DNA of 32,000 nt. Source: Candidatus Pelagibacter sp. HTCC7211 (lineage in GTDB: Bacteria; Pseudomonadota; Alphaproteobacteria; Pelagibacterales; Pelagibacteraceae). Below, piece after piece: positions 7,031-30,300 of this stretch. The DNA is taken from NCBI RefSeq assembly GCF_000155895.1, contig NZ_DS995298.1:1260001-1292000 (forward strand). Direction: 5' to 3'. The notes beneath the pieces were generated by a model. It saw nothing but the letters and a program-made list of their open reading frames with translations, ran no database searches and was not told where the DNA came from. Made by a program: the position numbers and the translations under genes. How positions within the stretch are numbered: position 1 is the stretch's first letter; every line of letters starts with the position of its first letter.

Positions 7031-7054
7031 CAGTTGATTAATATTTGCTAAAGA

Positions 7055-7088
7055 TTAAGTATTTATTTGATATTTTAAGTATTTATTT
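7055..7088. repeat. 14-bp direct repeat TTAAGTATTTATTT x2, 20-bp period
   Basis: Exact copies at 7055-7068 and 7075-7088. The second copy overlaps the ATPase stop codon. Both lie just upstream of the candidate -35 on the minus strand. Confidence 0.7.
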
Positions 7089-8168: not shown

Positions 8169-8207
8169 AAGACGTTAAAACATTAGTTAGATTGATAATC
8201 AAGCAAT

Positions 8208-13149: not shown

Positions 13150-13160
13150 TTAAAAGTATT

Positions 13161-13196
13161 AATCGAACCCGTTAAATTTTAACGGGTTCGATTTTA
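13161..13196 (+). terminator. Rho-independent terminator/attenuator immediately after proX
   Basis: AATCGAACCCGTTAA (13161-13175), loop ATT, then TTAACGGGTTCGATT (13179-13193). This is a perfect 15-bp inverted repeat running into TTTT. It ends 19 nt before the proW ATG. Confidence 0.6.
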
Positions 13197-13214
13197 TAGT
13201 ATAATAAATTTAAT

Positions 13215-14119: not shown

Positions 14120-14767
14120 ATGCCTCAACTATTAATTCACAGAGGTCTTGCTAAAAGGAAATTCTTAGAAAATAATATAAATTCTTTTAAATATTGTTTT
14201 AATAAAAATTATGGGATTGAAACAGATATTCATGCAACAAAAGATGGTGAGTTTATTTGTTTTCATGATTTTACACTTAAAAGAATTTTTAAAAAAAATT
14301 TAAGTGTAAAAAATCTCAATTATTCAAAAATTAAAGAAATAAGCAAAAATCTTAATAATCCAGTTCCATTATTAAAAGACCTATTAATTTTCTCAAAAAA
14401 TAAATGCTCGTTATTTATTGAAATAAAGCCAACCTTATCAATGTCGCTACTTAGAAAGCTCTTTAAGGAGACCTCAAAATTTAAAAGATGTGTATTTATA
14501 TCTTTTAAGCATGAAAATGTTTACAATTTATTAAAGATTAACAAAAAAGTTAAAGTTGGATTATCTTTTGCACCACCAACCAGTATTAAAAAAATACTTA
14601 AAAAAGCGAGCAATAAAGATATCAACTGCCTAATACTGGACAAATCATACTTAAAAAAAAAAAAAATTCAAAATTTAAAAATTAAAAAATATTTTTATAC
14701 GATCAAGTCCAAATTGGATTTTAATAAATACAGAAAAAATTATAATTTAATTTTTGAGAATCTATGA
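14120..14767 (+). CDS. Glycerophosphodiester phosphodiesterase (GDPD) family, short form
   Basis: 215 aa. Motifs HRGLAKRKFLENN and ETDIHATKDGEFICFHDFTLKR (GDPD HRG...EN / E-x-D-x-x-x-T-x-D-G-x6-HD). Very Lys/Asn-rich and visibly more AT-rich than its neighbours. Confidence 0.65.
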   Translation: MPQLLIHRGLAKRKFLENNINSFKYCFNKNYGIETDIHATKDGEFICFHDFTLKRIFKKNLSVKNLNYSKIKEISKNLNNPVPLLKDLLIFSKNKCSLFIEIKPTLSMSLLRKLFKETSKFKRCVFISFKHENVYNLLKINKKVKVGLSFAPPTSIKKILKKASNKDINCLILDKSYLKKKKIQNLKIKKYFYTIKSKLDFNKYRKNYNLIFENL

Positions 14768-14769
14768 AG

Positions 14770-15897
14770 TTATTGTTTTTTTAAATAATTTAATCTTCCA
14801 ATGATTTCATCTCGATCCATATAATAACCTTGTAAATGTCTATGCCCTGAGTTTGGATCAAATTCTGTTCTTCCATGCAATACTCTTCTATTATTAAATG
14901 AATAAATGTCACCTGGTCCTAAACGAAATTTAATTTGAAACCTATCATCATGTAATAAGTTTCCAAATCTATGGTGAGCTTTATAAACTTTTTCCATTAG
15001 ATCAGGATGACAATCAAGCACATCCATTGTTGCTACACTAAATCTAATATCATGATAATCTCCATCTTTAGTCAAGCTGATTGCTGGTGCATGAAATGCC
15101 CTATGAGACACTTGTGTATAATCTGTATCTTTAAATTTTAATGGCACGTTAACTAATGTTTCAAAAATTTCTTTTTCATTATTCTTTAAATATTCAGCAA
15201 CTGCAAATCCATCTACAGCCGAAGAGTCGCCGCCTTTAGCTGAATTAATTAAGCAGTGAAGAAATTGATATCCTGGAGGCAGTTCAAACCAAGGCAAATC
15301 CATATGATTTCTTAGTGCATGTGCTGTGTATGCTGAATTATTTGGTTTTGGAATATTTATAACCTCAAAAGGTGTTTTAAAAAAAGTTTCTCTTATGTGG
15401 CTTATTCTATTAAGTAATGGAAAAGCAGATCTTTTTTCTACTGGTGCGTTCTTAACTATTGCAATACCCGTATGATGCAAAAGCTCTAACCATTTTATCA
15501 AGCCCTCGTCAGAGTCTAAAATTTCGTCATGCTCTATACAAATTGACTCGAATTTATTTCCAAGATTTTGATCCCATAAATTGTAAGGAGAAATATATTT
15601 TGATTTATTTTTTAATGTATAGCAATTTTGACGAAGCCAATTCAGATCATAGAAACTAGTATGATCTCCTTCACTCCATTGAACTTCAAGAGACCCTTTG
15701 TCATCTATTTTAAAATCTTTTACTGATAAATTTTCTGAAACATTTAAAATATTAAACATTCTGTGATGAGAATCTTTGTCATGAGCTGTAGGACAGTTAT
15801 CTCTAAGCCACATATAGTTAAATTTACTTTCTTCTCCATCACTCCATTTAATTTTTAAATCTGATGTATCTTTTTCAATTTTATCTATTTGAAACAT
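14770..15897 (-). CDS. Fe(II)/2-oxoglutarate dioxygenase, gamma-butyrobetaine dioxygenase (BBOX/TMLH family)
   Basis: 375 aa. N-terminal DUF971-type repeats (KIKWSDGEESKFNYMWLRDNCP; EVQWSEGDHTSFYDLNWLRQNC). TauD-fold core with HMD triad motif (RNHMDLPW) and distal NNRRVLHGR. Confidence 0.75.
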   Translation of the reverse strand: MFQIDKIEKDTSDLKIKWSDGEESKFNYMWLRDNCPTAHDKDSHHRMFNILNVSENLSVKDFKIDDKGSLEVQWSEGDHTSFYDLNWLRQNCYTLKNKSKYISPYNLWDQNLGNKFESICIEHDEILDSDEGLIKWLELLHHTGIAIVKNAPVEKRSAFPLLNRISHIRETFFKTPFEVINIPKPNNSAYTAHALRNHMDLPWFELPPGYQFLHCLINSAKGGDSSAVDGFAVAEYLKNNEKEIFETLVNVPLKFKDTDYTQVSHRAFHAPAISLTKDGDYHDIRFSVATMDVLDCHPDLMEKVYKAHHRFGNLLHDDRFQIKFRLGPGDIYSFNNRRVLHGRTEFDPNSGHRHLQGYYMDRDEIIGRLNYLKKQ

Positions 15898-16006
15898 TTA
15901 CTGATGATTATTTACTCATTAAAATTTGTCAATGCAATTAATAGTTGTAATTATCGATTTCTTTCCTTTAATCTATTTAGCAGTTTTGTTACAAGTTCAT
16001 TGAAAA

Positions 16007-17029
16007 ATGTCAAAAATAGAAATCAATAATATTTATAAAATCTTTGGTAATAAGCCACAATCAGTAATGCAAATGGTTAAAGACGGGGCGACCAAAGAGG
16101 AAGTTTTAGAAAAAACTGGTCACACTGTGGGACTAGATAACGTTTCGTTAAAGATTGAAGAAGGGGAAACTTTTGTTTGCATGGGATTATCTGGATCAGG
16201 AAAATCTACATTAATTAGACATCTTAACAGATTAATAGAACCCACATCTGGTGAAATATTAGTTGAAGGCACAAATGTAATGTCTTTGAATAAACAAGAA
16301 CTAATCGAATTTAGAAGACATAAAATGAGTATGGTTTTTCAAAGATTTGGTCTTTTTCCCCATAAAACAGTAATTCAAAATGTAGGCTATGGTTTAGAGA
16401 TGAGAAATATAACTCAAGAGGAAAGAAATAAAATAGCAATGGAAAAAATTGAGGCCGTTGGACTTAGTGGTTTTGAAAATCAATATCCAAATCAATTATC
16501 TGGAGGTATGCAACAAAGAGTTGGTCTTGCTAGAGCTTTAGCAACAGACTCGGATATCATGTTAATGGACGAAGCATTTAGTGCTTTAGATCCTTTAATA
16601 AGAAGTGATATGCAAAAACAATTAATTTCTCTTCAGTCAGAATTAAAAAAAACAATTGTCTTTATAACTCATGATTTAGATGAATCACTACGACTTGGAA
16701 ATCATATTGCAATTTTAAACGCAGGTAAATTAGTTCAAGTTGGAACTCCGGTTGATATTGTTATGAATCCAGCAGATGATTATGTTGCAGCATTTGTTAA
16801 AGATGTAAATAGAGCAAAAGTTTTAAAAGCAAAAGTAATTATGACTGATGCTAAAGAAGGACAACCCTCTGGAGAAAATAGATTAAAAGTTCATGAAGAT
16901 GAATTTTTAGAGGAATTTTTACCAAAAATTGTTCTTAATGATGTGGTTGTTGATGTCGTAGACTCAGCTGGACATATAAAAGGATATATAACAAATAAAG
17001 AATTACAATCTTCTTTAGTTAAATCTTAA
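16007..17029 (+). CDS. proV: Glycine betaine ABC transporter ATP-binding protein (ProV/OpuAA type), short C-terminal domain
   Basis: 340 aa. ProV-type N-terminus (IYKIFG...), Walker A GLSGSGKST, signature LSGGMQQRVGLARAL, Walker B IMLMDEAFSALDP. Only about 75 aa follow the ABC domain. Confidence 0.8.
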   Translation: MSKIEINNIYKIFGNKPQSVMQMVKDGATKEEVLEKTGHTVGLDNVSLKIEEGETFVCMGLSGSGKSTLIRHLNRLIEPTSGEILVEGTNVMSLNKQELIEFRRHKMSMVFQRFGLFPHKTVIQNVGYGLEMRNITQEERNKIAMEKIEAVGLSGFENQYPNQLSGGMQQRVGLARALATDSDIMLMDEAFSALDPLIRSDMQKQLISLQSELKKTIVFITHDLDESLRLGNHIAILNAGKLVQVGTPVDIVMNPADDYVAAFVKDVNRAKVLKAKVIMTDAKEGQPSGENRLKVHEDEFLEEFLPKIVLNDVVVDVVDSAGHIKGYITNKELQSSLVKS

Positions 17030-17089
17030 AATGAATTACCATCACTACTTGGTAGTTGTGATGAGAATGATTATATTTGCAAATAATTA

Positions 17090-18310
17090 ATGTTAGAAAT
17101 TAAAAATCTGACAGAGATTACAAGTAATGGGCTATGCATAGGTTGTGGACTTTGTCAAAGTGTTGTTGGAAAAGAAAAAATTCAAATTTCAATGACTGAT
17201 AAAGGAAGATTAGAACCAAGAGAAACAACATCTTTATCTAATGAAGACTTTAGAAAAATAAAAGAAATATGTCCCGGTGTATTAGTTGAGGGGTTACCTA
17301 AAAAAGAGATAAGTAAAAATTCAAAAGAGGATTTAATATGGGGAGTTTACAATTCTTTATACTACGCATGGTCATCTGATAAAGATATCAGATTTCAAAG
17401 TTCAACCGGAGGGCTTTTAAATGGAATTTCTTTATATCTGCTAGAAACTAATAAGGTAGATTTCATTTTACATACTGCGGGAGACCCCGACAAACCAATG
17501 AGAAGTATTCCAAAGTTCAGTTATTCAAAAAAAGATTTATTGAGTTGTGAGAGTAGATCAAGATATGGTCCCGCCTCACCTTTAAGTAAATTTAATGAAG
17601 CCCTAGATAAAAATAAAAATTTTGCTTTTATTGGAAAGCCTTGTGATATTTCTGCAATTAGACTTCTCTCTAAAACTGATAAAAGAGTAGATAAATATTG
17701 TAAATATTTATTAACTCTTGTCTGTGGTGGTTCTACAGAATTTACTAAATCTCAAGATTTTATAGAAAGCTACAATATTAAAGAAGAAGAGCTAGATATT
17801 TTTAGATACAGAGGATACGGCAATCCTGGTCTGATGTACGTCAGAACAAAGGATGGAAGAGAACATGATAAAGAATATAATTCTTTTTGGGGAGATGAAA
17901 GTAACTGGAGAGTTCATTTTAGATGTAAGATTTGTCCTGACGCAATAGGTGAAAGCGCTGATATAGCAGCCCTTGATACATGGAGGGGTGGATCTCCCAT
18001 AGGAGAGGATGAGGGATTTAATGCAGCAATTGTAAGAACTGAAAAAGGATTAGATATATTAAATAGTGCAATTAAAGATGGATATATTGAAAAAGGAAAT
18101 CATTTAAAAATTGATGATATAAATGACTTTCAGCCTCATCAGGTAAATAAAAAAAAATCTGTATACGCAAGACATTTAGGTCTTAAAAAAAATAATTTAC
18201 CTATTGTTGAAACTAGTGGATTAAGAATAAAAGAACTTTATGATAATAATGAAAGTGAATTTAATATTAAAGAGGAGAAAGGCATCACTTTAAGAATAAA
18301 TAAAATTTAA
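17090..18310 (+). CDS. FrhB/FdhB-family (coenzyme F420 hydrogenase/dehydrogenase beta-like) flavin/Fe-S protein
   Basis: 406 aa. N-terminal CIGCGLCQSV; GKPCDISAIRLL (FrhB_FdhB_N type); C-terminal FRCKICPDAIGESADIAALDTW (FrhB_FdhB_C type). Confidence 0.6.
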   Translation: MLEIKNLTEITSNGLCIGCGLCQSVVGKEKIQISMTDKGRLEPRETTSLSNEDFRKIKEICPGVLVEGLPKKEISKNSKEDLIWGVYNSLYYAWSSDKDIRFQSSTGGLLNGISLYLLETNKVDFILHTAGDPDKPMRSIPKFSYSKKDLLSCESRSRYGPASPLSKFNEALDKNKNFAFIGKPCDISAIRLLSKTDKRVDKYCKYLLTLVCGGSTEFTKSQDFIESYNIKEEELDIFRYRGYGNPGLMYVRTKDGREHDKEYNSFWGDESNWRVHFRCKICPDAIGESADIAALDTWRGGSPIGEDEGFNAAIVRTEKGLDILNSAIKDGYIEKGNHLKIDDINDFQPHQVNKKKSVYARHLGLKKNNLPIVETSGLRIKELYDNNESEFNIKEEKGITLRINKI

Positions 18311-19093
18311 ATGAATATTTTAAAAAATAAAAAAATAATTATTTCAGCTGGTGCATCTGGCATAGGTTTAGCTACTGCAAAAATTTGTCTTGCTAGAGGA
18401 GCATACGTCTATCTATGTGATATTAATACAAAATCTCTAACTAAATTGAATAAAAATTCTTTAAAAAATAAAAGATTATTTACTTACTATTGTGATGCCT
18501 CTGATGAAAAACAAGTTTCTGATTTTTTCCAAAAAATAAAAAAGAAAACAAAAAAAATTGATGCTTTAATTAATAATGTAGGAATAGCTGGTCCTACTGG
18601 ATCTCTTGAAAAATTAAAATCAAAAGATTGGGAAAATACATTACATGTAGATGTTAATAGTCATTTTTATTTTACAAAAAAATCAATTCCTTTACTTAAA
18701 AAATCTAAAAATGGTTCAATAATAAATATCTCATCAACTGCCGGGATACTTGGTTTTCCATTGCGTTCTCCTTATGCGGCAAGTAAATGGGCTATCATTG
18801 GTGTTACAAAAACATTAGCAATGGAACTCGGTAAATTTAATATTAGAGTTAATGCTGTATGTCCTGGCACAATTAAAGGTGATAGAATGAAAAGAGTAAT
18901 AAGAGATAAAGCAAAATTCACTAAAGTATCAACAAAAACTATTGAAAAAGATTTTATTTCAATGAGTTCAATGAAACAATGGATCCTTGAAGAAGATATT
19001 GGAAAAATGTGTTCTTTTTTAATTTCTGATGATTCAAGTAGAGTTTCTGGACAAGTGATATCTGTTGATGGCCATACTGAAAGGAATGATTAA
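18311..19093 (+). CDS. Short-chain dehydrogenase/reductase (SDR)
   Basis: 260 aa. Motifs ISAGASGIGLATAK, NNVGIAG, and the catalytic YAASKWAIIG (YxxxK). Its ATG directly abuts the stop of the FrhB-like gene. Confidence 0.85.
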   Translation: MNILKNKKIIISAGASGIGLATAKICLARGAYVYLCDINTKSLTKLNKNSLKNKRLFTYYCDASDEKQVSDFFQKIKKKTKKIDALINNVGIAGPTGSLEKLKSKDWENTLHVDVNSHFYFTKKSIPLLKKSKNGSIINISSTAGILGFPLRSPYAASKWAIIGVTKTLAMELGKFNIRVNAVCPGTIKGDRMKRVIRDKAKFTKVSTKTIEKDFISMSSMKQWILEEDIGKMCSFLISDDSSRVSGQVISVDGHTERND

Positions 19094-19094
19094 G

Positions 19095-20036
19095 TTATCT
19101 TAATTTTTTTTCGTACTTTTTTCTAAGTTTTTGAAGTTCAACAAGATATTCGTCTCTTATATTTGCAATTTTTGTAACTGATTTTCCTTTAGATTGTTTT
19201 TTAGTGCCTGCCACTAATCTATTTATTAATTTATTTGACAAATTTGGAGCTTTTAACTTTGTCCAAGGTAATTTTAAGGCTGGACCAAATTGTTCTAACA
19301 TATGTCTCATGCCAGCTTTTCCTCCTGCTAAATGAAAAGTTAGGAAAGTTCCCATTAATGACCATCTCAATCCTGGCCCATCTTCAATTGCTCTATCTAA
19401 ATCTTCAGTGGTTGCATGTCCTTCATTGATTATATGTAGTCCTTCTCTCCACAAAGCCTCTTGTAATCTATCTGATAAATAACCAGGCAATTCATGCTTA
19501 ACCATTATTGGATTCATTGAAATCGATTTATAAAATTTTTTAGCATTATCTAAATATTCATTTGAAGTTTTTTTACTAGGCACAATTTCAACTGCAGGTA
19601 ATAAATAAACTGGGTTAAATGGATGTCCAATAATTGTTCGTTGAGGATTTTTACATTTGGAATAAATTTTAGTAGGTAATAATCCCGATGAGCTAGATGA
19701 AATTATCGCTTTAGGTTTTGCATGCTTGCCTATAGTTGCCATTAATCTAGTTTTTAAGGCATAATTTTCGCTAGCACATTCTTGAATAAAATCCGCATCT
19801 TTCACAGCTTCTTCAAGAGAAGTAAAATATTTAAAATTTTTTAATTTAAGTGTTTTTTTATTAAAAAGCTTTTTAACATAAGGCCATGTTCTCTTAATTT
19901 CAGATACTAAGTTTTTTTTAAGTTTTAAATCTTTGTCAAAAGCGTAAACAATTTTATCGTGTGCCAAGCAACGAATTATCCATCCGGCACCAATTACACC
20001 AGTTCCTATAATGGCTATTTTTTTTATTTTATTCAT
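19095..20036 (-). CDS. lcdH: L-carnitine 3-dehydrogenase (3-hydroxyacyl-CoA DH / lambda-crystallin family)
   Basis: 313 aa. IAIIGTGVIGAGW, ADFIQECASE, IGHPFNPVYLLP, and the long block GPGLRWSLMGTFLTFHLAGGKAGMRHMLEQFGPALKLPWT. That block matches carnitine dehydrogenases as I recall them. Confidence 0.7.
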   Translation of the reverse strand: MNKIKKIAIIGTGVIGAGWIIRCLAHDKIVYAFDKDLKLKKNLVSEIKRTWPYVKKLFNKKTLKLKNFKYFTSLEEAVKDADFIQECASENYALKTRLMATIGKHAKPKAIISSSSSGLLPTKIYSKCKNPQRTIIGHPFNPVYLLPAVEIVPSKKTSNEYLDNAKKFYKSISMNPIMVKHELPGYLSDRLQEALWREGLHIINEGHATTEDLDRAIEDGPGLRWSLMGTFLTFHLAGGKAGMRHMLEQFGPALKLPWTKLKAPNLSNKLINRLVAGTKKQSKGKSVTKIANIRDEYLVELQKLRKKYEKKLR

Positions 20037-20038
20037 TT

Positions 20039-21049
20039 TTAATTTAATAACTCTTTAATATTCTTATCTAGTTCTTTTTCAAATTTTCTATCATTACCAG
20101 GATTTGCAGCACAATGGCCGAAGGATGAATTAATTGGTCTTAATGATGAACGTGGAATATATCTTTTTTCATATTCATTATCTTTGGTTCTAAAGTATAG
20201 ATCTTGATTGCATGGCATTAAAATTGTTTTTGCTTTTATAGATTTAAGTGCCTTAATATAATTATTCTTATAAGTTGGTCCTCTACTTATATCATTCAAT
20301 TGCCAAGTTTTTAATTTTGATAGTAAATTATTAGCATCCCAATTTTTTGCATGATCTTCTGCCCAATCATTTAATAATTCTTCTGAATTTTTATATCCAA
20401 GTTTCTTGAATAGTTTTTCTCTATAAAAATTTTGAGAAAAAGCCCATCCTGCGTAAACACGACCAAAAGCTCTTAGACCTACAACAGGTTGTCTTTTATA
20501 ATTACCTTTATTCCAATTCTTGTCAGCTGTAAGTGCAGCTTTTACTCCCTCTAAAAAAACATGATTATGAATTGATGTTTTAGATGATGCACAAAATGGA
20601 AGAATTGCTTTTACCATATTTGGAAACTGTGCAGCCCATTGATATGATTGACATCCAGCCATTGACCAGCCAGTTACTAATGCTATTTTTTTTATTTTTA
20701 GTTTTTCAGTAATGAGTTTATGTTGGCAATAAATATTGTCCCATAAAGTTAATGTTGGAAATTTTGAACCAGATTGATTTTTGATTGTATTACTTGGAGA
20801 CGATGAAAAGCCATTACCAAACATATTAATTGATACAATGAAATATTTATTAGGATTAATTGCTCTATTCTTTCCAATAAATCCCTCATTTCTAATATGG
20901 CTTCCTGTATAAAAAGTTGGAAGAATAATTACATTTGAGGCACTTTTATTTAATTTGCCGTAGGTTTTGTATGCTAATTCCGCTGAACTTAAAATTTTAC
21001 CAGATAAAAGTTTAATATTTCCTAATTTAAACTTTTCATAATTCTTCAT
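20039..21049 (-). CDS. Alpha/beta-hydrolase, MetX (homoserine O-acetyltransferase)-like acyltransferase/esterase
   Basis: 336 aa. AYKTYGKLN...NVIILPTFYTGSH, FIVSINMFGNGFSSSPSN, and nucleophile elbow GWSMAG. Confidence 0.6.
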   Translation of the reverse strand: MKNYEKFKLGNIKLLSGKILSSAELAYKTYGKLNKSASNVIILPTFYTGSHIRNEGFIGKNRAINPNKYFIVSINMFGNGFSSSPSNTIKNQSGSKFPTLTLWDNIYCQHKLITEKLKIKKIALVTGWSMAGCQSYQWAAQFPNMVKAILPFCASSKTSIHNHVFLEGVKAALTADKNWNKGNYKRQPVVGLRAFGRVYAGWAFSQNFYREKLFKKLGYKNSEELLNDWAEDHAKNWDANNLLSKLKTWQLNDISRGPTYKNNYIKALKSIKAKTILMPCNQDLYFRTKDNEYEKRYIPRSSLRPINSSFGHCAANPGNDRKFEKELDKNIKELLN

Positions 21050-21052
21050 GAA

Positions 21053-22474
21053 TTAATAAAGTCTGAGATATTCTTTCACTTCCCAATCAGTAACTGCTTG
21101 ATGGTATCTTTCCCATTCATCATTCTTATAAGCTAATAAAGAATTTTTCATAACCGTTCCTATAACTTCATCAGACAATCTATCATTCTTTAGAGCTTCT
21201 AAAGCCATAAGTAAATTTCTTGGCAACCTTTTAATCCCAAGTTTTTTAAACTCTTTATCGGTCATTTCATAAAGATCTTGATCTGTAGGTTTGCCTGGAT
21301 GAATTTTCATCTTAATTCCCTCTACTGCAGCTGCAAGTGTCATTGAAAAAGCTAAATATACATTCATGGTCATATCTGCAGCTCTATTTTCTATACAATA
21401 TCTATTTTGAGGTAATCTAAATTGAGCAGATCTATTGTTGTGTCCATAAGTAATATTTGTTGGCGCCCAAGTAACTGTGCCTCCTTCAAATCCTCCCACT
21501 CTAGGAACTAATCCATTATACGAATTTACTGTTGAGCATGTAATTGAAGTTAATGCCTCAGCATGTTTCATTAATCCACCTACAGCAAATAATGATTCTT
21601 TTGACCATTTGTTACCTGCATCAAAAATATTTTTTCCATTTTTACCGACCATGGAGAAATTTATATGCGCTCCTGATCTCCAGTCTCCAATAGTAGGTTT
21701 TGGCATAAATGTAATAAACATATTATGTTTTTTAGCGACCTCTTTGAGAAGGATACGAAGAAAAACTAATCTATCAGCCATCTCCAAAAGATTTGTATAA
21801 TGAAAATCTAATTCAAATTGTGAGTAAGCACCTTCAGCAACCACATCATGAAGCTGCCATCCTAAACCGTTAAGAATATCAATTAATTCTTTTAAAAAAT
21901 GCATTGAGTCTAATGAGTGCTCAACGTCATAACCAAAAGCTTGTCTTCTAGGCCTAACTCCCTTTATTGGATCAGTATCAATAGCTTTTATTGGCTGACC
22001 ATTTTCATCATATTTCATTGCAATAAACTCAGGTTCGACCCCTGCCATACCTCTATATCCAGCATCTTGAGCTTTTTGCATATTACGTTTTAAAGCTTGT
22101 CTTGGACAAACATTGTAAGGTTTATCTTCCCAAAATAGATCTGCAAAAATTATTGCTGTTGATGTGTCCCAAGGACAAATATAAACAGCGTCTAAATCTG
22201 GTAGCATAACTTGATCCGAGTCTGCTGGAGTTAGTTCTGGAACATAAGAGATTGAATGAACTGCAAACTGAGGTCCCTTTCCTAAACACAAAGGTTCAAA
22301 ATCAGACATTGGAACAGGTTTTGTTTTTGGAATACCATGGAGATCAATCCAACTTGATAAAACGTATTTTACACCAGCGTTTTTTAATTTTTTATAAACT
22401 GAAGGTATTTTTTTTCTATTACGCTCAACTGCATCTTTAAAATTAACGTAATAAATTTTTTCATTTTTACTCAT
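21053..22474 (-). CDS. Glutamine synthetase-family ligase (gamma-glutamyl-amine synthetase-like, GmaS/PuuA-like)
   Basis: 473 aa. Beta-grasp N-domain (VKYVLSSWIDLHGIPKTKPV), GVEPEFIAM, FMPKP...SGAHINFS, YGHNNRSAQFRLP, and ENRAADMTMNVYL. Confidence 0.7.
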   Translation of the reverse strand: MSKNEKIYYVNFKDAVERNRKKIPSVYKKLKNAGVKYVLSSWIDLHGIPKTKPVPMSDFEPLCLGKGPQFAVHSISYVPELTPADSDQVMLPDLDAVYICPWDTSTAIIFADLFWEDKPYNVCPRQALKRNMQKAQDAGYRGMAGVEPEFIAMKYDENGQPIKAIDTDPIKGVRPRRQAFGYDVEHSLDSMHFLKELIDILNGLGWQLHDVVAEGAYSQFELDFHYTNLLEMADRLVFLRILLKEVAKKHNMFITFMPKPTIGDWRSGAHINFSMVGKNGKNIFDAGNKWSKESLFAVGGLMKHAEALTSITCSTVNSYNGLVPRVGGFEGGTVTWAPTNITYGHNNRSAQFRLPQNRYCIENRAADMTMNVYLAFSMTLAAAVEGIKMKIHPGKPTDQDLYEMTDKEFKKLGIKRLPRNLLMALEALKNDRLSDEVIGTVMKNSLLAYKNDEWERYHQAVTDWEVKEYLRLY

Positions 22475-22494
22475 GTTGATCTCTTCAATTTTTA

Positions 22495-22890
22495 TTATTG
22501 TGGCATATCTTCAGGATCTATTCCAGGAACAAATGTTATGCCTGCTTTTTGTTTCCAATCATGAGGGTACGCTGCATAAAATATTACACATTTTTCATCA
22601 CATTCATAAGCTATATGGTTATCCTTAGGTATATAAAGAACATCACCAGGATTACAGATATAAGACTCTCCATCACATGTTAGTCTAAAAGTTCCTTCCA
22701 TACAGTAAATAATTTCATCACAAGTTAAATCCCATGGCACAGAAACTTTATTTAAGAAATTTAATCCACCACACATCGTGTTACTTACTTTGCTGGTAAC
22801 AAAGGGTTTAATATAACTCTTGCCTGGTTCTAAAGTATGAAGTCTATTTTCTATATCTTTAAACTTATATAGTTGTGGCTTCTTTGACAT
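22495..22890 (-). CDS. Cupin-fold protein, EutQ-like (lacks the HxH metal motif)
   Basis: 131 aa. PWDLTCDEIIYCMEGTFRLTCDGESYICNPGDVLYIPKDNHI...FYAAYP resembles the EutQ pattern (DEidYVleG...aGDvifIPkGs...YvtyP). No His at the cupin motif-1 positions. Confidence 0.5.
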   Translation of the reverse strand: MSKKPQLYKFKDIENRLHTLEPGKSYIKPFVTSKVSNTMCGGLNFLNKVSVPWDLTCDEIIYCMEGTFRLTCDGESYICNPGDVLYIPKDNHIAYECDEKCVIFYAAYPHDWKQKAGITFVPGIDPEDMPQ

Positions 22891-22907
22891 TCTTATTTCC
22901 TTTCAGT

Positions 22908-23327
22908 TTAGACTTTTATTGGTTCATTTAATTCAACTTTATATCCATCAGGATCCTCACAAAATGCTATTACTCTTGTTCCATGTTTCATTGGACCTGG
23001 TTTACGAGTAATATTCACACCAAGTTTTTCAAGATCTTCACAAGCTTTATAAACATCTGGAGTTTCAATACAAACATGCCCCCATCCGTTTCCTTTGTCA
23101 TAATCTTCTTTTTGATCCCAATTGTGTGTTAATTCTAAACAAGGAGACTCTGTTTCAAGTCCATAGCCGATAAATGCATTTGTAAATTTTCCCTCAGGAT
23201 AATCTGTTTTTCTTAAAACTTTCATACCTAATGTTTTGCAATAAAAATTAAAAGATGCTTCTAGATCTTTAACTCTTATCATTGTATGGGCTAGTCGATA
23301 TCCCTCTAGATTGATTTCTTTAGACAT
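22908..23327 (-). CDS. gloA: Lactoylglutathione lyase (glyoxalase I)
   Basis: 139 aa. HTMIRVKDLEASFNFYCKTLGMKVLRKTDYPEGKFTNAFIGYG...LELTHNW...GWGHVCIE...FCEDPDGYKVELNE. Colinear with bacterial GloA. Confidence 0.85.
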   Translation of the reverse strand: MSKEINLEGYRLAHTMIRVKDLEASFNFYCKTLGMKVLRKTDYPEGKFTNAFIGYGLETESPCLELTHNWDQKEDYDKGNGWGHVCIETPDVYKACEDLEKLGVNITRKPGPMKHGTRVIAFCEDPDGYKVELNEPIKV

Positions 23328-24456
23328 TTTTTTTCCTTTTTATTGATTTTGAAGATTTCATTGTAGCATCAACTATGAGCTTTTGAAATGCTTGAACACC
23401 TTTTTCCCACACAGGAGACAAAAGACCACCTTCGTAAGATGCTGGAGAGTGCCTTCCTTCTTGAAGTCTTTCACACATTTCATGATCTTCTTTATGAACA
23501 CTCCACCATATGTTTTTAACCATTTTAATTTCTTCTTTACTCATGTCTTTACCGTCTGTTGTGTAAATTATTCTTTTTTGAGATGTTAAACCTGGGCTTA
23601 TTGGCACGTTAAGATAAACTCCGATTTGATTAGGAAAATAAGTTCCAATTATAAAATTTGGAAAAAGAGACAAATATCTAGATGTTACAGATAAAGCAGT
23701 ACTATTTTTAGTGTCTTCTTCATAAACGTCTACTCCACTGCCATAACATACTCCGTCTACAACAGTGTAATGATCTTTTAAAGGCTGATTGGTAGTAGTC
23801 TTATGAACAAACTGTACATGATAAGGCTCTATAAAGTTTTCAATTAAAAATTTCCAATTAGTATTTATATTTCCAAAATTTAACGTAGCTGCATATCTCA
23901 ATTTAGTAAAATCAATATCATTGAATTTTGAAATAAGTGGTTTTGCATATTGTTCAAATTTTTTTGCTTTTCCATTAAAATTTATAAAAATCCAATCGTG
24001 CCAAATATGAATCTTTATTGGTTTCAAACCATGATCAAAAAAATTAAATCCTTTTGGCTTGTGTTGATCTGTACCACCAACATGAGGTGCTGCTTTTAAG
24101 TTACCATCAAGATCATAGCTCCATGCATGATAAGGACAACGTATCATTTTTCCTACATTTTTTTTTTCATCTATAAGCTTTAGGCATCTGTGACTGCAAA
24201 CGTTATGGAAAGCTTTTATTTCGTTATTGTTATTTCGTACAAGTAATATTGGTTTATTTGCAATAAATAATGGAATTACATCACCAGTATTTTTAAGTTC
24301 ATGAGCAAAACCTACAAATAACCAATCATTAGATAAAACTGTTTCACATTCTTTTTTCCAAAAATTTTCATCAATATAAGATTTAGCTGGTAGGCCAAAT
24401 ATAGTATTGGCATTTTTTGATTTCTTTATTTTTACTAAATTTTTTTCTTTAGACAT
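23320..24456 (-). CDS. Rieske [2Fe-2S] non-haem-iron oxygenase alpha subunit, CntA/YeaW/GbcA/choline-monooxygenase-like
   Basis: 378 aa. Rieske CSH-x17-CPYH (CSHRCLKL...IRCPYHAWSY). Catalytic-domain motif NWKFLIENFIEPYHVQFVH. Size and layout resemble CntA/YeaW (about 371-374 aa). The stop overlaps the gloA start by 8 nt. Confidence 0.7.
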   Translation of the reverse strand: MSKEKNLVKIKKSKNANTIFGLPAKSYIDENFWKKECETVLSNDWLFVGFAHELKNTGDVIPLFIANKPILLVRNNNNEIKAFHNVCSHRCLKLIDEKKNVGKMIRCPYHAWSYDLDGNLKAAPHVGGTDQHKPKGFNFFDHGLKPIKIHIWHDWIFINFNGKAKKFEQYAKPLISKFNDIDFTKLRYAATLNFGNINTNWKFLIENFIEPYHVQFVHKTTTNQPLKDHYTVVDGVCYGSGVDVYEEDTKNSTALSVTSRYLSLFPNFIIGTYFPNQIGVYLNVPISPGLTSQKRIIYTTDGKDMSKEEIKMVKNIWWSVHKEDHEMCERLQEGRHSPASYEGGLLSPVWEKGVQAFQKLIVDATMKSSKSIKRKKNV

Positions 24457-24542
24457 GGGCTAGTAGAAAATTATTAATTATATTGAAAACCCTATTTTAG
24501 AATATTAAGATTTACAATAAAATATTTGAATAGTGCAATTAG

Positions 24543-25898
24543 ATGGGAAATAACAAATTTATAGAAGAAGATTTTAGAGGCTATAAACAGTCTACAGTAC
24601 CAAAAATAGATGAGGTTTTAGCAAGAACAAATCCAAAGACAGCTTGTGGAGAATATTTAAGACGCTATTGGCATCCTGTTGCTTTAACTTCTGAGGTAAG
24701 TCATATCCCAAGAGAAATTCGTATTTTAGGAGAGGATTTAGTAATATTTAAAACTTCTAAAGGGAATATAGGTTTGGTCCATAAAGCATGTCCTCACAGA
24801 AGAGCTTCTATGGCCTATGGTAAAACTGAAGAAGAAGGAATTAGGTGTTGTTATCATGGATGGCTTTTTTCTCCTAACGGTGAAATACTTGAAACACCTG
24901 GTGAAGACCCAGAGTCAAAACAAGCTAAAAAACTAAGAGAAACTTTTAAACTTGGAGCTTACCCTGTAATAGAATTTAACGGTTTAGTATTTTCTTATCT
25001 TGGACCAATGGATAAAATTCCAGAATTTCCACATTACGACTCATTTGAAATACCAGGAAATACTTCGAGTCCATATCGTATAGATTATAACTGTAATTGG
25101 ATCCAAGTCTTAGATGCAATCATGGATCCTCTTCATACATCATTTTTACACGGTCAAAGTTCTGGTCTTCAATTCTCTGAAGGTTTTGCTGAAGTTGGAG
25201 AAATAGAATTTTATGAAAGAGGAATTCAATATCTAGGATGTAATACGCGAAGAATAAATGACAATGTTTGGGTAAGAGTAAATGAATTAATTTTACCTAA
25301 TTTTACTCAGGCTGGAGCTGCATTTGCAGCTGATGGTACAAAAAGTAAATACTTTGGAAGAAGTTCTTTTACAAGGTGGGTTGTGCCTATTGATGATCAT
25401 CATTGTGTTGCTTTAGCTTGGGCAAATTTTGGTGAAAGAGGAGATCCGATAGAATACAATAATCAAGAAGGATACGAAAGAATTGAAGCTGGTGAAATTT
25501 CAAATAGAACTAAAGAAGAAAAACAAAAAAGTCCTGGTGATGCAGAAGCTGTTGAGGGGATGGGTTCAATAAGTGGTCATAAAGGAGAACATCTAATGCC
25601 AACTGATAAAGGTGTTATGATATATAGAAGAAGAACAAGAAAATTAATTAAAGATTTAGAGCAAGGATTAGAACCACCTCAACCTCAAAAGACAAAAGGA
25701 GAAGTCGTGAGAACTAATGGACAAGATACGGTATTAAAAGCCCCAAAAAGAAGTAATAATGATAAAGAGTACGTCAAATCAATATGTTCTTCAGTGATGA
25801 ATATGCAATTTGATTTAGAAGAAATGCCGTTAAAAGAAAGAGACAATAGTATTATTAAAAATCTTCAACAAATGGAGGCGAGGGGTAATTTTGACTGA
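24543..25898 (+). CDS. Rieske [2Fe-2S] oxygenase, VanA/KshA/PaO (class IA demethylase/monooxygenase)-like, with a long charged C-terminal extension
   Basis: 451 aa. RRYWHPVA, a Rieske CPH...CCYH motif (CPHRRASMAYG...IRCCYHGWLF), and NWIQVLDAIMDPLHTSFLH. Confidence 0.7.
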   Translation: MGNNKFIEEDFRGYKQSTVPKIDEVLARTNPKTACGEYLRRYWHPVALTSEVSHIPREIRILGEDLVIFKTSKGNIGLVHKACPHRRASMAYGKTEEEGIRCCYHGWLFSPNGEILETPGEDPESKQAKKLRETFKLGAYPVIEFNGLVFSYLGPMDKIPEFPHYDSFEIPGNTSSPYRIDYNCNWIQVLDAIMDPLHTSFLHGQSSGLQFSEGFAEVGEIEFYERGIQYLGCNTRRINDNVWVRVNELILPNFTQAGAAFAADGTKSKYFGRSSFTRWVVPIDDHHCVALAWANFGERGDPIEYNNQEGYERIEAGEISNRTKEEKQKSPGDAEAVEGMGSISGHKGEHLMPTDKGVMIYRRRTRKLIKDLEQGLEPPQPQKTKGEVVRTNGQDTVLKAPKRSNNDKEYVKSICSSVMNMQFDLEEMPLKERDNSIIKNLQQMEARGNFD

Positions 25899-26919
25899 AA
25901 ATAAAAAGATAAAAATTCATGTTAAGAATAATCATTGGGCACCAGGCTCCTTCCCTACTGATGCCGAAGGTGAAAAAAATTTTACTATTACAAAAGAGCA
26001 CTTAGAAAATGCGCTTAAAGATCTTCCAGAAATAAAAAACAAAGTAGAAATATTTGTTGATTGGGATGAAGATAATTTTGAAAAATCAATGTCTAATTCT
26101 GATATTTTATTAGCTTGGAACTTTCCTACACAAAATCTAAAAAAAATTTCACCTAATTTGAGATGGATACATGTTGTTTCTGCGGGTGTTGAGCATTTGC
26201 TTCCTTTGGACTGGATGTTTGATGATTTAGTATTAACTAATAGCAGTGGTGTCCATGCCAAAAAAGCTGGTGAATACGGGTTAATGGCTATTTTGATGTT
26301 GCAAAATCATATGACCAAAATTGTTACCAATCAAAAAAATAAAGAGTTTGTCTCTTTATTTAGCAATCCTATTGCAGGCAAAACAGTGGTTGTTGTTGGA
26401 ACAGGATCTCTAGGATCTTCAATGGCAAAACACATCAAATCATTAGGAGCAAATGTGATTGGTGTAAATAAAAAAGGGAAAAAAGTAGAAGGATGTAATG
26501 AGGTTATTACTATCGAAAGTATTGATACTGTTTTACCAAATGCAGATTTTTTGTACCTAGCTGTACCTGAAACTCCAGATACAAAAAATATGATTAATAA
26601 AGATAGACTTGATATGCTTAAACCAACATGTGGAATAGTTAATGTTGGAAGACAGTCAGTAATGGATTATGAAGTAATGGCTGATAAACTTAATAATAAT
26701 GAATTAGCTGGCGCAATACTTGATGTTTTTACCCACGAGCCTTTAGATAAGTCTTCAAGACTTTGGGATACGCCAAATCTAATTTTAACACCTCATGTAT
26801 CGTCTGACGATCATGGTGACTATGTAAGATTAACTCTGAATATATTTATAAAAAATTTAAAATTATTTTTTGAAGATAAAGAGTTAATGAATCAGATTGA
26901 TAAAAAGCTTGGATATTAA
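25891..26919 (+). CDS. D-isomer-specific 2-hydroxyacid dehydrogenase family protein
   Basis: 342 aa. VVVVGTGSLGSSMAKHIKSLGANVIGV, NVGRQSVMD, ILDVFTHEPL, and LTPHVSS. TTG start at 25891 preceded by GGAGGCGAGGGG. It overlaps the Rieske stop (TTGACTGA). Confidence 0.7.
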   Translation: MTENKKIKIHVKNNHWAPGSFPTDAEGEKNFTITKEHLENALKDLPEIKNKVEIFVDWDEDNFEKSMSNSDILLAWNFPTQNLKKISPNLRWIHVVSAGVEHLLPLDWMFDDLVLTNSSGVHAKKAGEYGLMAILMLQNHMTKIVTNQKNKEFVSLFSNPIAGKTVVVVGTGSLGSSMAKHIKSLGANVIGVNKKGKKVEGCNEVITIESIDTVLPNADFLYLAVPETPDTKNMINKDRLDMLKPTCGIVNVGRQSVMDYEVMADKLNNNELAGAILDVFTHEPLDKSSRLWDTPNLILTPHVSSDDHGDYVRLTLNIFIKNLKLFFEDKELMNQIDKKLGY

Positions 26920-26957
26920 AAAAATTTTATAAAATTAATTAAGCTAATATTTTTAAC

Positions 26958-27845
26958 TTACTTGTGTTTAATAAGTTTAAGTTTTTCTCTTGTTTCAGCT
27001 GGCGTCATTGGTGAATAGCCTATTTCATCTGCAATTCTTATTGCTTTTTCAACCAACTGCGCATTTGTAGCTAATTTTCCTTTTGATAAATATAAATTAT
27101 CTTCTAAGCCAACTCTTGGATTTCCACCCATCAAAATAGTTTGAGCAACAAAAGGCATTTCATTTTTTGAAATTGCAAAACCAGACCAAACACCCTCTTT
27201 TGGCATTATATCCTTCATTGCTTGCATTGCTAATGTTGTTGCTGGTGCACCCCAAGGTATTCCTAAACACATCTGAAACATTGGTGGGTCACTTAATAAG
27301 CCCTCTTTGTACAATTGGGCACCAAACCACATATTGCCTAAATCAAATGCTTCAATTTCAGGTTTTACCCCTATGTCTTTTAATTTTTTGGCAGCTTTTC
27401 TCAAATCATTTGGCGTATTAACTGTTATAACCGAACTATCGCCGAAGTTTAGTGTTCCAGCATCGAGTGTACAAATTTCAGGTAAAAACTGTTCAGCATT
27501 TGCAATTCTTTCCATAACATTTGCCATATCAGTCATTGGGCCAAAATCTAAAGGGTTATCACCTTGCCCGATATCAAGGTCACCTCCCATACCTGTAGTT
27601 AAATTTAAGATTACATCAGTGCCACTAGATCTTACTCTATCTACTACTTCTTTATATAGCTCTAACCTCCTACTAGGAGTACCATCTTCTTCCCTAACAT
27701 GAATATGAGCAATTGCAGCACCTGCTTTAGCAGCTTCGATAGAAGCTGTTGCTATTTGTTCAGGAGTTTTTGGCAAATCAGGGTGTTTGCTAGCAGTGTC
27801 TCCAGAACCAGTTACCGCGCAAGATACAAAAACTTTATTGTTCAT
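26958..27845 (-). CDS. BKACE (3-keto-5-aminohexanoate cleavage enzyme, DUF849) family; candidate dehydrocarnitine cleavage enzyme
   Basis: 295 aa. VFVSCAVTGSGDTASKHPDLPKTPEQIATASIEAAKAGAAIAHIHVRE is the hallmark BKACE N-terminus. LGIPWG and RVGLEDNLY are also present. Confidence 0.75.
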   Translation of the reverse strand: MNNKVFVSCAVTGSGDTASKHPDLPKTPEQIATASIEAAKAGAAIAHIHVREEDGTPSRRLELYKEVVDRVRSSGTDVILNLTTGMGGDLDIGQGDNPLDFGPMTDMANVMERIANAEQFLPEICTLDAGTLNFGDSSVITVNTPNDLRKAAKKLKDIGVKPEIEAFDLGNMWFGAQLYKEGLLSDPPMFQMCLGIPWGAPATTLAMQAMKDIMPKEGVWSGFAISKNEMPFVAQTILMGGNPRVGLEDNLYLSKGKLATNAQLVEKAIRIADEIGYSPMTPAETREKLKLIKHK

Positions 27846-27880
27846 AATTTATAATTCACTTATAGTTTAAAAAAGTAAAA

Positions 27881-28606
27881 ATGGAAATAACTGAATTACA
27901 AAAAGATTTAGCTGCAACATTTAGATGGGCTGCAAGATTAAATATGCATGAAGCAGTTGCAAATCACTTTAGTGCTTGCGTTCCAGGTTCCTCAGATTTT
28001 TATGTAAATAAAGCCGGCATTCATTTTAGCCGAATAAAAGCAAGTGATTTAATTTTAATAACAAAAGAAAATATTAATGAATTTAGAAATAAACCCGAAA
28101 TAGTAGACTCTACGGCATTAAATATACATGGAACAATTCATGAAAAAGCTCCACATGCTAAATGTATTTTTCATGTTCATTCAAAATATGCAACTATCCT
28201 ATCAACACTAAAGGACCCAACGTTAAAACCTATAGATCAAAATACTATGACTTTTTATAACAAGATTGCTGTCTATAATGATTTTGGAGGATTGGGATTT
28301 CAAGAAGAGTCAATCAAAATGGCAAATGCTTTAGGCAATAAGCAACATATGATTTTAGCTAATCACGGAATTATAACAACTGGAGAGACAGTTGCTGAAG
28401 GTTTCAATTCATTATATTATTTTGAAAAAGCTTCCGAAACTTACATTACAGCTCTATCAACTAATAAAGATTTAAACATTGTAAGTCATGAAATTGCTGA
28501 AAAAACTTCAGAGGAGGCTGCAAATTATCCTGTTGATACAGCAAAACAATTTTTATCAGAGATTAGATGTATCTTAGATAAAGAAGAACCTGATTATGTA
28601 AATTAA
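27881..28606 (+). CDS. Class II aldolase/adducin-domain protein
   Basis: 241 aa. GNHFSA-type start (ANHFSACVPG), HGTIHEKAPHAKCIFHVHSKY (metal-binding His cluster), and ILANHGIITTGETV. Confidence 0.65.
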   Translation: MEITELQKDLAATFRWAARLNMHEAVANHFSACVPGSSDFYVNKAGIHFSRIKASDLILITKENINEFRNKPEIVDSTALNIHGTIHEKAPHAKCIFHVHSKYATILSTLKDPTLKPIDQNTMTFYNKIAVYNDFGGLGFQEESIKMANALGNKQHMILANHGIITTGETVAEGFNSLYYFEKASETYITALSTNKDLNIVSHEIAEKTSEEAANYPVDTAKQFLSEIRCILDKEEPDYVN

Positions 28607-28607
28607 T

Positions 28608-29078
28608 ATGAGTATATTTCTTACTAAACAAAAAATAATAAAAGATTGGACAGACTATAATGGACATATGAATGTTGCATATTATGTTCTCATATTTGAT
28701 CAATTTGGATCAGAAGTCTTATTAACTAGTTTTAATATGGGCGAACATTCTGCAAAAACTACAAAAAAAAGCACTATGGTTGTAGAATCTCATATTACCT
28801 ATGATCAAGAGGTTAAAGAAAATGACGAAGTAGATATTAACTTAATTTATTGTGACCATGATAAAAAAAGAATTCAATATAAGTTAGAAATGATACATTC
28901 AGAAAAAAAATACTTATCCGCAACTCTAGAAGCTTTATCGCTTTATGTTGATCTAGATGAAAGAAAAGTTGTTGAATTTGAAAAAGAAAAAGTGGATCTA
29001 ATGAGAGAATTCATTTCTAAAAATAATAGTACTTTTAAAACTGATAATTTAAAATTTTCTTCTAAATTAAAAAAATAA
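28608..29078 (+). CDS. Hotdog-fold (4HBT-like) acyl-CoA thioesterase; candidate betainyl-CoA thioesterase
   Basis: 156 aa. DYNGHMNVAYYVLIFDQ is typical of 4HBT_2-type thioesterases. Its start lies 1 nt after the aldolase-like stop. Confidence 0.6.
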   Translation: MSIFLTKQKIIKDWTDYNGHMNVAYYVLIFDQFGSEVLLTSFNMGEHSAKTTKKSTMVVESHITYDQEVKENDEVDINLIYCDHDKKRIQYKLEMIHSEKKYLSATLEALSLYVDLDERKVVEFEKEKVDLMREFISKNNSTFKTDNLKFSSKLKK

Positions 29079-29466: not shown

Positions 29467-30300
29467 ATGAATGTAAAATTATTATCAGGCGCATTAGGTG
29501 CAGAAATTAGTGGAATTGATTTAACTGATACTTCTGATCAAAATTTTAAGAAAATAAATGATTTATTATTAGAACATAAAGTTATTTTTTTTAGAGATCA
29601 GCCCATTACAAATGAACAGCAAATAGCTCTTGCAGCAAAATTTGGTCCATTAGAGACTCATGCATATGTTAAAGGATTAAAAGATCATCCAGAGATTGTA
29701 AGAATTATCAAAGGTAAAGAAGAAAAAAATCAATGGGGTGAAAACTGGCATAGCGATGTAAGTTATAATTCCAAGCCTACTAAAGCAGTGATATTAAAGT
29801 CAGTCAAAATTCCTCCTGTTGGTGGAGATACTTGTTTTTCAAATATGGAATTAGCCTGGGAAACATTAGACCCTAAAATCCAAAGCAAAATAATTAATAA
29901 AAAAGCAGTTCATAGTTCACTTGGAGCAGAATTTTTTATTGATAATTATAAATACATGGAAGGTAATGAAAAAAGAAATTATGACTCTTATTCTAATGAG
30001 CATCCAATAGTAAGAACACATCCTGAAACAGGTAAGAAAATTTTATATGTTAACTGGACCTACACAAAACAGATTATAGGTTTAGAAAAAGAGGAAAGTG
30101 ATCAAGTTTTAAAGGAAATATTTGAACATCAAGCTAGATTGGATCTAACCTGTCGATTTAGTTGGACAGAAGACACTGTTGCTATTTGGGATAATAGAAG
30201 TGTAATTCATTATGCAATAGCAGATTTTTTTCCTGGAAGAGGTCTTGGATACGAGAGAATAATGGATCGAATTGCAATTGAGGGTGACCATCCTCAATAA
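29467..30300 (+). CDS. TauD/TfdA-family Fe(II)/2-oxoglutarate dioxygenase
   Basis: 277 aa. WHSDVSY (HxD), GGDTCFSNM, HPIVRTHPETG, and WDNRSVIHYA. Confidence 0.8.
   Translation: MNVKLLSGALGAEISGIDLTDTSDQNFKKINDLLLEHKVIFFRDQPITNEQQIALAAKFGPLETHAYVKGLKDHPEIVRIIKGKEEKNQWGENWHSDVSYNSKPTKAVILKSVKIPPVGGDTCFSNMELAWETLDPKIQSKIINKKAVHSSLGAEFFIDNYKYMEGNEKRNYDSYSNEHPIVRTHPETGKKILYVNWTYTKQIIGLEKEESDQVLKEIFEHQARLDLTCRFSWTEDTVAIWDNRSVIHYAIADFFPGRGLGYERIMDRIAIEGDHPQ

Follow-up and report, generated by a model that had tools for sequence, protein, structure and literature searches.

Carnitine and gamma-butyrobetaine occur at measurable levels in both the dissolved and the particulate organic matter of the sea, and SAR11 bacteria, the most abundant heterotrophs of the surface ocean, use glycine betaine as a solute, a methyl donor and a source of glycine. 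In Sinorhizobium and Rhizobium, gamma-butyrobetaine is activated as a CoA ester, with no need of an oxygenase, in a CoA-dependent route (bco genes plus cdh) that joins the carnitine dehydrogenase and BKACE steps and likewise ends in betaine. In Pseudomonas putida, PP_0301-0303 show carnitine-specific fitness defects and the BKACE reaction has been established biochemically (bioRxiv 10.1101/2021.12.09.472016), and CdhABC is induced on carnitine in Ruegeria (PMC12478193). Within SAR11, carnitine metabolism genes have been noted in offshore genera (ISME J 2025, PMC12636525), and an island of 17-20 genes has been described in 8 of 16 Arctic isolates (mBio 2025, PMC12421898), whose authors read it as serving betaine uptake and production, acquired by horizontal gene transfer and enriched at high latitude; they list its genes without assigning a role to the thioesterase and without enzyme assays. 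This work describes a 32,000-nucleotide stretch of Candidatus Pelagibacter sp. HTCC7211 (hereafter the window; positions 1,260,001-1,292,000 of a genome that is complete in one contig of 1,456,888 bp), with emphasis on four genes which probably constitute the enzymatic core of an accessory SAR11 island funnelling quaternary amines into glycine betaine, their scattered layout being secondary.

The window has about 31% G+C and its genes are tightly packed. The four open reading frames (ORFs) that a first-pass annotation had joined into a route from gamma-butyrobetaine through carnitine to glycine betaine are present, uninterrupted and of full length, and Pfam and NCBIfam profile matches agree with the family labels that it gave them:

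14770-15897, minus strand: BBOX1, with TauD and GBBH-like_N domains; TIGR02409 (gamma-butyrobetaine dioxygenase) at 323.7 bits, cutoff 414.75.
19095-20036, minus strand: predicted ortholog of LcdH/CdhA, with 3HCDH_N and 3HCDH domains; NF005471 (L-carnitine dehydrogenase) at 361.8 bits, cutoff 414.
26958-27845, minus strand: predicted ortholog of CdhC, of the BKACE family; PF05853 at 306 bits, Kce equivalog at 239 bits, cutoff 382.
28608-29078, plus strand: putative CdhB-type hotdog thioesterase, with a 4HBT_2 domain; the sole NCBIfam match is the thioesterase domain of NF005716.

The core enzymes retain their catalytic motifs, and reciprocal best hits, proposed beforehand as a check, hold for all four proteins of this genome. 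The best annotated homologs form a co-directional cluster in Burkholderia cenocepacia (BKACE-LcdH-thioesterase-BBOX; 57.5, 48, 29 and 36% identity). The co-occurrence of the four families is not a matter of chance, since the same families neighbour each other in the 11 eligible wild SAR11 loci and make up a single co-directional cluster in Burkholderia and several Pseudomonas.

The genome holds only one BKACE gene and one LcdH-like gene. A similarity search with the window BKACE returned only near-identical proteins from marine metagenomes with uninformative names; the closest annotated homologs (55-58% identity) lie on Rhizobium, Caballeronia and Novosphingobium replicons, in operons composed of a GlxA regulator, BKACE and carnitine dehydrogenase, with or without a thioesterase, separate or fused. 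Among 80 loci with the closest BKACE relatives in named genomes, 51 outside SAR11 were eligible, having at least 3 kb on both sides and a BKACE at least 50% identical to that of the window. An LcdH homolog lies no more than 300 bp downstream of BKACE in 47 of these 51 loci, the P. putida group being among those with the pairing, and a thioesterase, separate or fused, is found within 3 kb in 43. Among 11 wild SAR11 BKACE loci, LcdH is near in 9, the thioesterase in 8 and BBOX1 in 11.

Pairing of BKACE with a HADH-family dehydrogenase is generic, and phylogenetic placement therefore matters: BKACE paralogs below about 47% identity pair with hydantoinase, cyclase or other HADH-family dehydrogenases. 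This general design in paralogous clusters lends some support to the idea that the window dehydrogenase and BKACE act on another beta-hydroxy or beta-keto acid (the 3-keto-5-aminohexanoate of lysine fermentation, gulonate or an unknown quaternary amine), as do the score of SAR11 LcdH under the equivalog cutoff and its position at the end of a Rieske/GS-like operon in this genome. Maximum-likelihood trees of BKACE and of the dehydrogenase (like that of BBOX, from the quick IQ-TREE search with SH-aLRT support only) make such a substrate very improbable. The window BKACE falls inside a 41-member cdh-linked clade, split off from the paralogs by a branch of length 1.3 with SH-aLRT 100, and the dehydrogenase inside a 40-member clade of BKACE-adjacent carnitine dehydrogenases, with all three paralog dehydrogenases outside. 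Both proteins, whose tree placement the first-pass annotation had named as a test, thus belong to cdh-operon clades and lie apart from paralogs with other contexts. The lysine-fermentation and gulonate readings are rejected by the trees together with the model scores, the 239 bits on the Kce model (cutoff 382) being similar to the 248 of a cdh-linked Burkholderia BKACE. The linkage of LcdH to the Rieske/GS-like genes is in turn secondary, because that block occurs without LcdH in four genomes.

The residues point the same way. The BKACE Zn ligands H47, H49 and E248 are invariant, and LcdH, about 48% identical to its Burkholderia/Caballeronia counterparts, keeps GxGxxG and 53 positions conserved at 95% or more, H138 and E150 among them. 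Reference LcdH proteins reach 615-682 bits on NF005471, against 361.8 for the window protein, which obtains only 220 bits on the 3-hydroxyacyl-CoA dehydrogenase model; its sub-threshold score is ascribed to the SAR11 LcdH stem, which is long and compositionally biased in the tree. On these grounds, the assignment of the window BKACE and dehydrogenase as predicted orthologs of CdhC and CdhA is well supported.

The BKACE tree has one exception, a long-branch Mesorhizobium sequence nested in the cdh-linked clade with no LcdH nearby. This BKACE, on a Mesorhizobium huakuii plasmid (L110:3501-4391), is partnered by hydantoinase/oxoprolinase genes and an SDR, without carnitine dehydrogenase, and could be a case of changed function. 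A paralogous dehydrogenase-BKACE-thioesterase trio outside the cdh clade occurs on Paracoccus versutus pTAV3 (L111:2499-4839); with 43% and 36% identity to the window proteins and a betaine-type binding protein nearby, it may act on another quaternary amine.

The hotdog thioesterase is a divergent CdhB-type protein as judged by homology, and its specificity for betainyl-CoA is a prediction from that kinship. It is the sole member of its family in the genome and is related to CdhB at E values of 1e-14 to 1e-19, with DYNGH and DHDKKR-type motifs common to both. Its NF005716 match covers residues 345-475 of the model, the C-terminal thioesterase domain of a fused carnitine 3-dehydrogenase, and its best PDB match is 2hlj, itself a CdhB-type protein since it scores 283 bits against the thioesterase of the P. 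entomophila cdh operon. In SAR11 the gene lies divergently upstream of BKACE, 35-50 bp apart or with a class II aldolase gene between them, and this pairing spans three SAR11 genera and one sister alphaproteobacterial group.

Other observations suggest instead that the protein hydrolyses acyl-CoAs in general and is not dedicated to this route, in which case betainyl-CoA would be released by another enzyme or spontaneously. Identity to CdhB is just 23-31%; the protein is annotated FadM-like in the table of the Arctic study (PMC12421898); and all eight sampled genomes of the genus have an ortholog (57-69% identity), although six of the eight are complete and have neither BKACE nor LcdH. Two such contexts were examined, in the complete genomes G050 (L026:5529-5999) and G023 (L027:5264-5737), whose orthologs are 67-69% identical: their neighbourhoods are unrelated and contain no class II aldolase. 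Set against the conserved divergent pairing with BKACE, the CdhB-type profile and structure matches, the common motifs and the single copy in the genome, a general enzyme appears rather unlikely. The thioesterase step of the first-pass annotation stands as CdhB-type homology, and is weakened by the low identity and by the persistence of orthologs in genus-mates devoid of BKACE and LcdH.

BBOX1, which would feed gamma-butyrobetaine into the route, shares its fold and domain pair over residues 14-374 with human BBOX1 (3ms5/4bg1) and Leisingera TmpA (6npb). Common to the three are the Fe triad (H198, D200 and the H347 equivalent), the 2-oxoglutarate Arg (R360 equivalent), the first acid-binding Asn (N187, equivalent to human N191) and an aromatic cage, which in the window protein reads F/F/Y/Y at human Y177/W181/Y194/Y366. 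BBOX1 scores higher on TIGR02409 than on the TmpA model NF049936 (275.2 bits), and for the TmpA-like paralog of the genome the reverse is true. The cdh-linked Burkholderia BBOX is also under the TIGR02409 cutoff (397.9 bits vs 414.75).

A different substrate is suggested by several features of the protein. Human BBOX and TmpA tie in the PDB search, with about equal scores over the aligned residues. The second acid-binding Asn (N292/N293 equivalents) is S/V in all SAR11 BBOX1 orthologs, the motif reading RFSVATMD in BBOX1 instead of NFNNATRD in the human enzyme and RFNNR in TmpA (PMC9296572), and the Zn site is reduced to the first Cys and the His, two of the three Zn Cys being lost; the altered motif and Zn site are both conserved across the SAR11 orthologs. 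The lineage is isolated, its stem is long, and an exhaustive search of 1.8 billion representatives gave no relative above 40% identity outside SAR11, the nearest named ones being Marinomonas and Capsaspora BBOX. Furthermore, in the window the gene lies beside the importer and a GDPD gene and not beside cdh genes. It is accordingly conceivable, if unlikely, that the carnitine-to-betaine part of the route is right while BBOX1 hydroxylates another trimethylammonium compound (a trimethylated phosphonate, beta-alanine betaine or another osmolyte) and supplies no carnitine.

Tree and context argue for gamma-butyrobetaine nonetheless. The SAR11 BBOX1 clade lies inside a group with the cdh-linked bacterial and Capsaspora BBOX, split with SH-aLRT 91 from the TmpA-like and TMLD-like paralogs of the genome; the branching order deeper within the BBOX group is not settled by the tree. 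The Asn-Asn-Arg phosphonate-binding motif of TmpA was not found in BBOX1, which does not have the R288 of that enzyme (PMC9296572). The cdh-linked Pseudomonas and Burkholderia BBOX proteins keep CxCxxC and have their own variant of the second-Asn motif; as these enzymes vary there too, the N292 motif was dropped as a discriminator between BBOX and non-BBOX proteins. In Burkholderia and several Pseudomonas the gene next after cdhCAB encodes a BBOX homolog. BBOX1 is located within 10 kb of BKACE in all 11 SAR11 loci, and none of the 10 BKACE-positive genomes of the family is without it. Genomic context favours gamma-butyrobetaine as the substrate, and with the profile and tree evidence makes hydroxylation of this compound by BBOX1 moderately likely. 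For the proposed feed-in, the placement in the BBOX group holds, tempered by the score under the equivalog cutoff, the loss of the second Asn and most of the Zn site, and the isolated lineage.

BBOX1 is one of three paralogs of its family in the genome, and the top-scoring model differs for each. The TmpA-like one (C1:675319-676404; L007:1483-2586) reaches 333 bits on the TmpA model (cutoff 400); among the adjacent genes, the only ones searched, there is no TmpB-like HD-domain partner, the neighbours being an inositol-monophosphatase-family gene and DUF924. The TMLD-like one (C1:142826-143860; L008:1474-2568) exceeds the trimethyllysine dioxygenase cutoff (270.2 vs 268.3 bits) and adjoins a DMT transporter and a PDH E2 gene. 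A TauD-like gene at 29467-30300 appears as BBOX(2) in the island list of the mBio paper; since it is without a GBBH-like N-terminal domain and scores best on taurine dioxygenase (225 bits, cutoff 313), that label looks doubtful.

The four core genes form four transcription units: plus-strand genes part the three minus-strand genes, and the thioesterase is on the plus strand. BBOX1 is flanked by GDPD and proV, both on the plus strand; LcdH is the last gene of a six-gene minus-strand run, with a 2-nt gap to the preceding block; BKACE is flanked by the plus-strand 2-hydroxyacid dehydrogenase (2-HADH) and class II aldolase genes; and the thioesterase starts 1 nt after the aldolase. The four separate units of the first-pass annotation follow from strand orientation alone, scans for promoter and terminator consensus sequences having stayed at the shuffled level (92 found vs 94 expected; 9 vs 8.8), and the contrast it drew with the single Pseudomonas cdh operon is upheld by the cdh loci compared. 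Two elements stand between or beside the core genes:

20037-26957, mixed strands: seven-gene segment between LcdH and BKACE (Pfam/NCBIfam), with MetX-like, GS-like, cupin, GloA-like and Rieske1 genes on the minus strand, then Rieske2 and 2-hydroxyacid dehydrogenase on the plus strand.
27881-28606, plus strand: class II aldolase/adducin-family gene (PF00596; NF005689 at 291.7 bits), cotranscribed with the thioesterase; the start of BKACE is 35 bp away.

The aldolase also lies between thioesterase and BKACE in genomes G041 and G104 and in some single-amplified genomes (SAGs), and is absent there in G024, G009 and G003. G041, of the same genus, carries a compact island (HADH, ALDH, GDPD, BBOX1, proXWV, SDR, LcdH, BKACE, aldolase, thioesterase, SMR, TauD-like, CHDH) in which BKACE and LcdH are 5 bp apart. 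Because their adjacency is kept not only in G041 but in G024, G033, 9 of the 11 wild SAR11 (SAG) loci and the outgroups, it is ancestral. Five minus-strand genes of the intervening segment (20039-24456) occur as a block of their own, without cdh genes, in the genus-mates G160, G118, G090 and G148, near ABC-transporter/creatinase-like genes like those at 3654-10120 of the window; in G104 the same block is co-directional between BKACE and LcdH, whereas neither G041, nor four other genomes checked, nor any of 17 wild SAR11 loci has it. The LigXa-like Rieske2 and D-2-hydroxyacid dehydrogenase genes (24543-26919) and a FrhB/FdhB-like flavo-iron-sulfur gene after proV (17090-18310) are missing from all related islands examined (G041, G104, G003, G009, G024, G033 and the 17 SAG loci) and look like strain-specific additions.

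LcdH has come apart from BKACE on more than one occasion in SAR11 (loci L036, L038, L040 and L041; genomes G003, G056 and G064): in several wild genomes SDR-proV directly follows BKACE, with no LcdH, and in one genus LcdH is about 50 kb from BKACE or on another contig. The scattering emphasized by the first-pass annotation is therefore real in this genome but is a derived, local, strain-level rearrangement and not a SAR11 trait, given that the adjacency is ancestral, and the rule in relatives, and that the separating block is an independent module in genus-mates.

The four genes sit on an accessory island that most genomes lack. Of 71 genomes of the family, 10 have BKACE, as do 2 of 8 in the window's own genus; BBOX1 and thioesterase orthologs accompany it in all 10, and LcdH in 9. 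The view that the genes imply real investment in a reduced genome has to be tempered accordingly. The island gene set is already published (PMC12421898), and the window is a rearranged variant of it: HADH, GDPD, BBOX1, the ABC importer, SDR, carnitine dehydrogenase, BKACE, class II aldolase, thioesterase, SMR, TauD-like and CHDH genes occur in near-identical order in the Arctic island, whose layout G041 reproduces. In the window this order is interrupted by the seven-gene segment between the carnitine dehydrogenase and BKACE, the FrhB-like gene after proV and a different, relocated proXW; the aldehyde dehydrogenase (ALDH) of the G041 island is lacking, none being found between HADH and GDPD.

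Genes for transport and for neighbouring or downstream metabolism complete the picture:

1640-2761, plus strand: thiolase (Thiolase_N/C).
12136-14102, plus strand: OpuAC-type binding protein and ProW-type permease of a betaine/choline-family ABC importer (PF04069 at 157 bits; ProW/ChoW models at 264-266 bits).
14120-14767, plus strand: GDPD-family phosphodiesterase (family assignment).
16007-17029, plus strand: ProV-type ATPase of the importer, divergent from BBOX1 (TIGR01186 at 369 bits, over the cutoff of 326.6).
18311-19093, plus strand: SDR (adh_short; 3-hydroxybutyrate dehydrogenase models at 173-177 bits, under cutoff).
30346-31929: choline dehydrogenase (743 bits, over the subfamily cutoff).

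The ProV is 76-82% identical to the island proV products of G041 and G104. The window proX/proW, in contrast to the usual island pair, to which they are just 30%/47% identical, are non-orthologous and relocated; they are 65%/74% identical to a pair beside the relocated LcdH of G003 (L029:8422-10398), which hints that this binding protein and carnitine dehydrogenase move together. Carnitine is not a ligand of TmoX of HTCC1062. In every island variant the SDR keeps its place beside LcdH and proV, and a role on the acetoacetate made by BKACE, or on 3-hydroxybutyrate, is speculative. The GDPD and choline dehydrogenase genes suggest a parallel branch from glycerophosphocholine through choline to betaine.

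The conversion of carnitine through 3-dehydrocarnitine to betainyl-CoA plus acetoacetate and on to glycine betaine, as first proposed, is still the best reading of the locus, with BKACE and the dehydrogenase in cdh-operon clades. In this scheme the OpuAC/ProWV-type importer would take up the substrates, and BBOX1, with O2 and 2-oxoglutarate, would convert gamma-butyrobetaine to L-carnitine. LcdH is predicted from its orthology to oxidize L-carnitine to 3-dehydrocarnitine with NAD+, and BKACE to form betainyl-CoA and acetoacetate by transferring the betainyl group to acetyl-CoA. Hydrolysis of betainyl-CoA to glycine betaine and CoA by the hotdog thioesterase, as its homology suggests, would make the route irreversible. 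Acetoacetate could be recycled by the thiolase and an acetoacetyl-CoA synthetase encoded elsewhere in the genome (789 bits, cutoff 520.9), the presence of both meaning that acetyl-CoA can be regenerated. The betaine might be kept as a solute or demethylated by BHMT-like and DMGDH/SARDH-like enzymes, for which the genome has three BHMT-type methyltransferase genes and three 810-aa DMGDH/SARDH-type genes. The present gene order would have arisen when the ancestral BKACE-LcdH pair was split by an inserted block of unrelated genes and the transporter genes were reshuffled.

Some general points count against this scheme, in addition to those given for the thioesterase and BBOX1. None of the four core proteins reaches an NCBIfam equivalog cutoff. 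No CdhR-type regulator was detected, either by tblastn of the whole genome with three CdhR-like queries (none at E <= 0.01) or among the window ORFs scanned. In the literature, no published test of a SAR11 enzyme or culture on carnitine or gamma-butyrobetaine was found.

The opposite direction, from glycine betaine to carnitine, has been suggested for marine communities on the basis of labelled carnitine recovered from labelled betaine in seawater incubations, carnitine dehydrogenase and BKACE being in principle reversible (PMC9321204). The thioesterase and the 2-oxoglutarate oxygenase are however effectively irreversible and both work towards betaine; the window scans turned up neither a betaine-CoA ligase nor a betaine-CoA transferase, and the genome has no gene of the CoA-transferase family. 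Reverse operation in this organism is thus extremely improbable. A bolder proposal, that BBOX1 represents a new trimethylammonium-hydroxylase specificity class whose substrate is not gamma-butyrobetaine and, separately, that the Rieske/GloA/cupin/GS-like/MetX-like block is a functionally integrated, undescribed quaternary-amine branch co-expressed with LcdH, is doubtful.

If the funnelling of quaternary amines into glycine betaine is correct, a sizeable SAR11 subpopulation would be a sink for carnitine and gamma-butyrobetaine and a source of glycine betaine. What is added here is firm orthology for the BKACE and dehydrogenase steps, with the BBOX1 and thioesterase steps predicted from homology and context, and the usual position of the SAR11 thioesterase divergently upstream of BKACE. 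There is also evidence that the scattered gene order arose by strain-level rearrangement of an island known from earlier publications. The added value is modest.

Comparison with the known carnitine systems places the locus as follows. The ligase, acyl-CoA dehydrogenase and hydratase set of the Sinorhizobium/Rhizobium route was not seen in the window scans. Clusters of the type BKACE-LcdH-thioesterase-BBOX, found in Burkholderia (cenocepacia, ambifaria, stagnalis) and some Pseudomonas, bring the same four families into one neighbourhood; there all four genes are co-directional and contiguous, unlike the window, and their BBOX shows the complete Cys3 Zn site together with the motif R[MV][AG]NFLRG, whereas SAR11 BBOX1 is 35-38% identical with motifs of its own. 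The Pseudomonas cdhCAB operons with CdhR (P. aeruginosa; P. putida PP_0301-0303/PP_0305) differ from the window in their regulator, in the contiguity of their genes and in the window scores under curated cutoffs: BKACE, dehydrogenase and thioesterase occupy three transcription units in the window against one contiguous co-directional operon, and the thioesterase, divergent in sequence, is transcribed divergently upstream of BKACE and not downstream of the dehydrogenase. The same three enzyme families are nevertheless present in both, with orthologous BKACE (56-58% identity) and dehydrogenase (46-49%), and the predicted chemistry leading to betainyl-CoA, acetoacetate and betaine is the same.

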